Positions 4,060 to 4,236 of a stretch of 4,780 bases of DNA are shown here, one piece after another. Positions within the stretch are counted from its first letter, which is position 1, and each line of letters starts with the position of its first letter. This DNA comes from a virus. Taxonomy: Duplodnaviria; Heunggongvirae; Uroviricota; Caudoviricetes. The DNA lies in the IMG/VR virus record IMGVR_UViG_2671181040_000010; one strand, 5' to 3'. A model generated the notes under the pieces. That model was not told the origin of the DNA. It made no database searches and saw nothing but the letters and a program-made list of their open reading frames with translations. Made by a program: the position numbers and the translations under genes.

Positions 4060-4236
4060 TTTTTATAAGAGGTTTCTGGTCGGGATTATATAAAACTGCG
4101 GACACGTCGTATGCAAGAAGGCGCTACGGTTTTCTGATAAACCTTTCGCCAGCATCATCTGCTTCAGCCCAGTAAAAAGAGACGCGAAAAATGCACAACA
4201 GGCACCACACGTCATGCATGGATTAGGATTGCTCAT
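4060..4236 (-). pseudogene. degraded remnant of a YkgJ/UPF0153-like (CxxCxxCC putative Fe/Zn-binding) gene
   Basis: Minus-strand ATG (complement of 4234-4236) opens MSNPNPCMTCGACCAFF with a CxxCxxCC motif. The expected continuation RVSFYWAEADDAG appears only in a different frame, implying a 1-bp deletion near 4185, and then terminates. No full-length ORF remains. Confidence 0.35.

Follow-up and report, generated by a model that had tools for sequence, protein, structure and literature searches.

Gene content of the prophage end

The 4,780 nucleotides of the window analyzed here come from an EHEC/aEPEC-type lambdoid prophage and form its right end. From its left edge, the plus strand carries the gene for the C-terminal domain of a tail fibre (9-398; PF06820), an intact nleB2 (575-1555), a copy of nleC (1589-1879) that breaks off after ~96 codons, a tail-fibre-assembly fragment next to it, and, between that fragment and nleF, a copy of nleH that is frameshifted according to PGAP. 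The gene for the T3SS effector NleF is intact (3163-3732, plus strand; PF16809, E = 5.8e-8; PGAP NleF, WP_000938107.1). It is the last intact gene ahead of a stretch of debris, consisting of IS256, pin, and ykgJ remnants, that lies between nleF and the right att site of this “exchangeable effector locus” prophage. The effector locus at 1589-3108 is itself partly dead, and the only intact effector genes are nleB2 and nleF. A sub-threshold match to the Rfam model IS009 (RF02111) covers the full model length at 1798-2008 on the plus strand (62 bits, where the gathering score is 117; E = 7.5e-13) and extends across the point where nleC is truncated and across the tail-fibre-assembly fragment.

Homology to the K-12 chromosome begins at position 4446, which corresponds to nucleotide 29 of an annotated tRNA-Ser of 90 nt. 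The 3′ 62 nt of this tRNA (4446-4507, plus strand) constitute the copy of the att core at the right prophage junction and are followed by native downstream DNA. In K-12, the matching tRNA-Ser sits between mtfA and yodB, and we take it to be serU, an identity that fits the similarity of the adjoining DNA to a phage named SerU-LTIIb. ARAGORN detected no complete tRNA in the window, and an Rfam scan at the locus gave nothing but spurious partial matches on the tRNA fragment. The end of an IS66-family element, corresponding to the 3′ end of tnpC (4692-4780, minus strand; 100% match to plasmid copies), is inserted 185 nt beyond the serU fragment, where it interrupts the chromosome outside the prophage. 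A 12-nt direct repeat, GTTATTCAGTCG, occurs at 4675-4686 and 4729-4740, straddling the IS66 junction.

The whole locus from 1 to 4692 is found in 103 complete E. coli genomes, which come from a wide range of hosts and include O145:H28. In the best 30 of these 103 genomes, identity is 99.4-100%, each match stops at 4692, and the IS66 end is absent from the site; the matches over 1-4692 are unbroken except in two genomes, where IS elements have inserted at other places in the locus.

The ykgJ stump and the adjoining debris

The minus strand at 4147-4236 holds the 5′ stump of a gene of the YkgJ family (CxxCxxCC, PF03692), comprising codons 1-30 and the first base of codon 31. An earlier, sequence-only reading had recognized here the N terminus of a YkgJ/UPF0153 protein interrupted by a 1-bp frame slip and had suggested a TBLASTN search with E. 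coli YkgJ as a check. With the K-12 protein as query (translated from L003:2508-2837), that search is significant and the N terminus is found in two frames. Residues 1-17, which correspond to 4236-4186, are matched in frame -2, in an alignment that runs on to residue 21 (4236-4174; E = 9e-8), and residues 17-30 (FRVSFYWAEADDAG) are matched in frame -1 as far as 4148 (E = 3e-6). In a search of 28 Gb at the DNA level, the chromosomal ykgJ of thousands of E. coli genomes matches 4244-4147 with 92.9% identity (E = 3e-30), and this match is present in 5,121 of 5,426 genomes. A chance match was rejected as the source of the ykgJ signal on the strength of the E-values.

The frame slip also proved real. 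Alignments with K-12, RM9387, and STEC299 show that one C is absent between 4186 and 4185, in a T5C2 run after codon 17, such that the window reads GCATTTTTC-GCG and the three other copies read GCATTTTTCCGCG. Sequencing error was discarded as an explanation for this frameshift; the same base is absent in more than 100 independent complete genomes. Upstream of the slip, the CxxCxxCC cluster is intact (C7-M-T-C10-G-A-C13-C14; 4218-4195, minus strand), and an ORF of 57 amino acids opens with the ATG at 4236 and extends to 4063 on the minus strand, with MSNPNPCMTCGACCAFF as its N terminus.

Direct homology of the stump to bona fide YkgJ proteins is evident from tblastn and from its 97.8% nucleotide identity to the STEC299 gene (88 of 90 positions, with one gap). 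What the locus lacks is the continuous frame of ~109-110 codons, including the C-terminal cysteines, as one base is deleted and homology ends at 4147. Nor does it give a match to the whole PF03692 domain, which has ~85 positions and spans residues 6-98 in intact members. Neither the 30-residue repaired stump, the 37-residue repaired peptide, nor the 57-residue ORF has a Pfam match even at E ≤ 1 to 10, and NCBIfam scans of the stump, a frame-repaired peptide, and the 57-residue ORF gave no match, because the sequences are too short; homology is therefore shown by tblastn and blastn instead. Judged by its sequence, the locus is a remnant of a YkgJ family member and not itself a member. With more than 70% of the PF03692 domain gone and the frame shifted, the remaining fragment is incapable of forming that domain. 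The finding is an ordinary one and nothing new: RefSeq/PGAP already places a pseudogene at exactly 4148-4236 of the window (6416-6504 of the locus in strain RM9872), described as “frameshifted; incomplete; missing C-terminus”, and it is the only PGAP call within 3733-4445.

In every ykgJ copy examined, homology to the window stops at 4147. On the other side, the alignment between the flank of a pin-like gene and a pseudogene of MRE162 passes the stop codon at 4091-4093 and ends at 4146, so that the ykgJ stump and the pin remnant abut tail to tail at 4147/4146 without a spacer. That the two homologies end on adjacent bases shows that the loss of frame after codon 30 is a rearrangement junction and not the product of accumulated point mutations. 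The earlier reading, which assigned the whole of 4060-4236 to decayed ykgJ and described a reading frame that collapses after the N terminus, is supported, with two corrections. The frame is indeed lost, through a sharp junction at codon 30 and with no gradual decay, and only 4147-4236 is derived from ykgJ; 4060-4146 belongs to the 3′ end and flank of the pin-like gene on the opposite strand.

That gene is the remnant of a pin/gin-like serine DNA invertase (3950-4146, plus strand), identified by tblastn, nucleotide identity, and the MRE162 alignment. A phage invertase query recovers the C-terminal helix-turn-helix (residues 152-182 of 184) at 3992-4084 with an E-value of 1e-9, and 3950/3960-4148 is 75-80% identical at the nucleotide level to pinE and recombinase pseudogenes. 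The remnant is truncated at its 5′ end, changes frame near 3992 (as judged by eye from the ORF list), and reaches its stop at 4091-4093, after which its 3′ flank continues up to the ykgJ junction. As a member of the Pin/Gin/Hin family, 3950-4093 falls short, having no resolvase catalytic domain and a sub-threshold HTH_7 match; at E = 0.11, this weak match is the sole Pfam signal in 3733-4445. The presence of a pin remnant beside effector genes is consistent with an ancestral e14-like tail-fibre inversion system, now lost. Directly after nleF lies the remnant of an IS256-family transposase pseudogene (3740-3927, minus strand), which has 69% nucleotide identity to the annotated pseudogene that follows nleF in strain 90-3040; in alignment with the 90-3040 copy, that of the window has additional internal deletions of 29 and 5 nt.

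The absence of a convincing ORF from 3733-4445, remarked upon in the sequence-only reading, is borne out: the longest is 70 amino acids, and, the sub-threshold HTH_7 apart, none has a family match. A crude consensus test of 3700-4700 found no σ70-like promoter, a terminator scan of the same interval found one weak terminator-like hairpin, located inside the pin remnant, and a repeat search found no relevant repeat of at least 12 nt at the stump locus. The same reading's suggestion that the att-proximal cargo is decaying accords with the three adjacent wrecks (IS256 remnant, pin remnant, and ykgJ stump) and is backed further upstream by the frameshifted nleH and truncated nleC.

Origin and fate of the phage gene

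Comparison with related prophages, also proposed in the earlier reading, yielded intact copies at the equivalent position. STEC299 encodes a YkgJ family protein of 110 residues (WP_101973541.1; PF03692) and RM9387/RM10466 one of 109 residues (WP_022581964.1; PF03692). In the intact proteins, PF03692 covers residues 6-98 or 6-89 (E = 1e-10 to 5e-12), and those of K-12, RM9387, and STEC299 reach 42-47 bits, where the cutoff is 23. The gene order in STEC299 is exo, xis-like, int, serU 3′ fragment, and ykgJ, with tail-fibre genes on the opposite strand further on. The ykgJ of RM9387/RM10466 likewise lies between an integrase-adjacent tRNA 3′ fragment, presumably from serT, and oppositely oriented tail-fibre genes. 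The minus strand of the window and STEC299 are collinear from ~4523 to 4147, with 96.8% identity over the tRNA part, and homology is lost on both sides of this block. Contiguous runs of int, tRNA 3′ fragment, intact ykgJ, and opposing tail-fibre genes occur in RM9387 (L009:2646-5174) and STEC299 (L010:3694-5375).

This layout of tail fibres, ykgJ, att, and int is either the vegetative (attP) order of a lambdoid phage or that of tandem prophages. The order in RM9387 and STEC299 is the one to be expected if prophages sit in tandem at a single tRNA site, or if one phage has integrated beside another. The occurrence of intact ykgJ in an attP-type layout argues that it is a cargo gene of the b region, situated immediately beside attP in some serU-integrating lambdoid phages and pointing inward. 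A tblastn search of deposited phage genomes with YkgJ found no intact coliphage copy, only the stumps of Stx phages and a gene of an Acinetobacter phage with 49.5% identity; the intact phage-type ykgJ was found only in prophages of complete genomes.

By far the most probable account, in our view, is that the stump is a non-functional relic of this att-proximal phage cargo gene, or “moron”, destroyed by a 1-base deletion and a truncating rearrangement. The ancestral serU-integrating lambdoid phage would have had a complete ykgJ next to attP, with transcription running from the att side into the phage genome, in the direction of the tail-fibre genes. One lesion would have been the loss of a single base from the T5C2 homopolymer run that follows codon 17. 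In the other, a deletion or an illegitimate recombination event would have eliminated the gene beyond codon 30, leaving the stump fused to the 3′ flank of a dead pin-like invertase. Both lesions predate the spread of the locus, the copies of which are nearly identical in ~100 genomes; the loss of ykgJ dates before the spread of the locus into these ~100 sequenced E. coli genomes. The ~210 nt between stump and att core would have been spared as a recombination arm of attP/attR, presumably because they are needed for recombination.

A competing explanation, to which we attach little probability, is that the 5′ end of the stump and the region upstream of it are retained as DNA, either as an attR/attP arm for integrase, IHF, and Xis or as a secondary attB. 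The region upstream of ykgJ (4237-4445, minus strand) is indeed the phage-side att arm, being 91.4% identical without gaps to the intergenic region between int and ykgJ of STEC299; its att-proximal part, 4327-4445, is conserved in other serU phages, with 84-89% identity to ev099, PhiR70_1, mEp332, and SerU-LTIIb. The arm contains an inverted pair of CTTGGAATA, at 4334-4342 (plus strand) and 4398-4406 (minus strand). Chance would give 0.07 matches, and two were reached in none of 200 shuffles; the pair are possible candidates for arm-type integrase sites or IHF-related sites. However, the coding stump begins 210 nt from the core, and λ-type att arms usually reach less far than this. A secondary attB has a precedent: Nakamura et al. 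2021 (PMC8112680) show that a segment derived from ykgJ/ecpE in Stx and effector prophages includes a 96-bp attB (attB-in-PP_2), at which other lambdoid phages integrate into the prophage. The published attB lies in the homologue of the ykgJ/ecpE intergenic region, to which 4245-4460 has no detectable homology. With the K-12 ecpE-ykgJ intergenic region and the VT1-Sakai region as references, in place of the published 96-bp sequence itself, blastn at a word size of 7 gave only chance-level matches of 7-10 nt, and tblastn found no remnant of dinI upstream of the stump such as that in VT1-Sakai. Since the window has neither this intergenic similarity nor dinI, it does not group with the attB-in-PP_2 segments, and a secondary-attB role would not apply to it as far as sequence can tell. 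Insertions at the stump are also absent from the best 30 of the 103 genomes.

Still less probable is that the 57-residue ORF (4236-4063) is a real and new small protein, consisting of a CxxCxxCC metal-binding N terminus and a novel tail. The window retains the start codon, a partial Shine-Dalgarno-like AGTGA, the DNA upstream of it that is held in common with the intact STEC299 gene, and the cysteine motif, so that translation into a hybrid peptide of 57 residues is conceivable in principle. The ORF is moreover unchanged in the ~100 genomes. This identity, however, reflects recent common descent and not demonstrated constraint, and the tail of the peptide is out-of-frame ykgJ followed by the antisense of the pin 3′ flank. 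Neither Pfam nor NCBIfam recognizes the product, PGAP calls no gene, and the scan described above found no promoter-like site.

Identity to the stump is highest for STEC299 (97.8%), followed by pO55 (94.4%), K-12 (93.3%), RM9387 (91.1%), and VT1-Sakai (85.4%). The 50 nt upstream of the start are 86% identical to pO55 and ~40% identical to K-12, RM9387, and VT1-Sakai. The STEC299 protein has 75-78% amino acid identity to the chromosomal YkgJ of Escherichia and at most 65% to those of other Enterobacterales; when one genome per species was searched for a closer donor outside E. coli, no protein exceeded 78%. This distance from chromosomal YkgJ argues for a phage ykgJ lineage that is old and Escherichia-related and not the result of recent host capture. 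The least probable of the alternatives is accordingly that the fragment is a piece of host chromosomal ykgJ recently gained through aberrant excision: a chromosomal origin is proposed for the Stx-phage copies by Nakamura et al. 2021 (PMC8112680), and the 90-nt stump is 93% identical to chromosomal ykgJ, but that likeness arises because the N terminus is strongly conserved, the prophage is at serU and not near ykgJ, the upstream DNA resembles pO55 and not K-12, the arm is that of STEC299 (91.4%), and the collinear STEC299 protein is itself so far from chromosomal YkgJ.

Comparison with other copies of ykgJ

As a pseudogene in a part of the prophage known for its accumulated effector genes, IS elements, and broken pieces of genes, the stump is of small importance in itself. 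Its modest value is as a marker, through which the descent of this effector-carrying serU prophage can be traced to phages in which ykgJ was still intact next to attP. The stump also sets the ykgJ lineage of the window apart from that of the Stx phages, whose dinI-ykgJ′ segment is a secondary integration site.

The relationship between phage and chromosomal copies has a further aspect. A decayed dinI-like pseudogene lies upstream of chromosomal ykgJ in the K-12-type ecpE-ykgJ intergenic region (L003:2245-2363) and also in L012, L013, and L015; residues 34-55 and 65-80 of VT1-Sakai DinI match the intergenic region in two frames. We reproduced the homology between the K-12 and VT1-Sakai ykgJ/ecpE segments (308 nt, 83.8%), and this match joins the chromosomal region to the phage segment made up of the dinI 3′ end and ykgJ′. 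Among the representatives compared, the dinI-like remnant upstream of ykgJ was detected in E. coli and Shigella and not in E. whittamii, E. ruysiae, or Escherichia sp. E1V33. The pair dinI-ykgJ may be a cassette common to phage and chromosome. It is conceivable, if rather doubtful, that the stump is one decay state of a recurrent att-proximal ykgJ cassette (sometimes dinI-ykgJ) of phage and chromosome, which lambdoid phages would have carried as cargo for a long time; the chromosomal locus would then be either the fossilized end of a prophage or a place where exchange has recurred. If true, the secondary-attB homology of Nakamura et al. 2021 would run from phage to chromosome as well as in the reverse direction.

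The first 30 residues of the window copy are like those of K-12 YkgJ (b0288; PF03692, “putative zinc- or iron-chelating domain”, UPF0153), including CMTCGACC and FRVSFYWAEADDAG. In contrast to the K-12 gene, the window keeps only 30 of 109 codons, with a frameshift, and its upstream DNA is unrelated to the ecpE-ykgJ intergenic region.

The Stx-phage copies resemble that of the window in consisting of a truncated 5′ end of ykgJ that points inward and lies within ~1 kb of the right-hand boundary of a lambdoid prophage. In VT1-Sakai (Sp15), the gene H0002 is annotated as similar to K12 YkgJ and lies downstream of the LexA-controlled dinI near att; Stx1 and Stx2 phages by the dozen have the same stump, ~1 kb from their end. 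These copies are only 85% identical to the window stump, however, and they are accompanied by a K-12-type intergenic region, dinI, an SOS box, and the 96-bp secondary attB, none of which the window has.

The pO55 plasmid copy, found also in other effector loci such as that of C325, belongs to the same sublineage as that of the window and has lost one base in the same T/C run. It differs in that 284 nt of the gene are kept and in that it adjoins nleA and an IS3 element. The base lost from pO55 may be T and not C, and the two frameshifts may therefore be independent. A frameshifted pseudogene of the pO55 type downstream of nleA is also found on chromosomes, for example in C325, which carries the locus of the window too.

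The closest parallel is provided by STEC299 and, at a greater distance, by RM9387/RM10466, in which ykgJ is likewise beside an att site and on the strand opposite to that of the tail-fibre genes. There, the genes are full-length, whereas the copy in the window is cut at codon 30 and is one base short.
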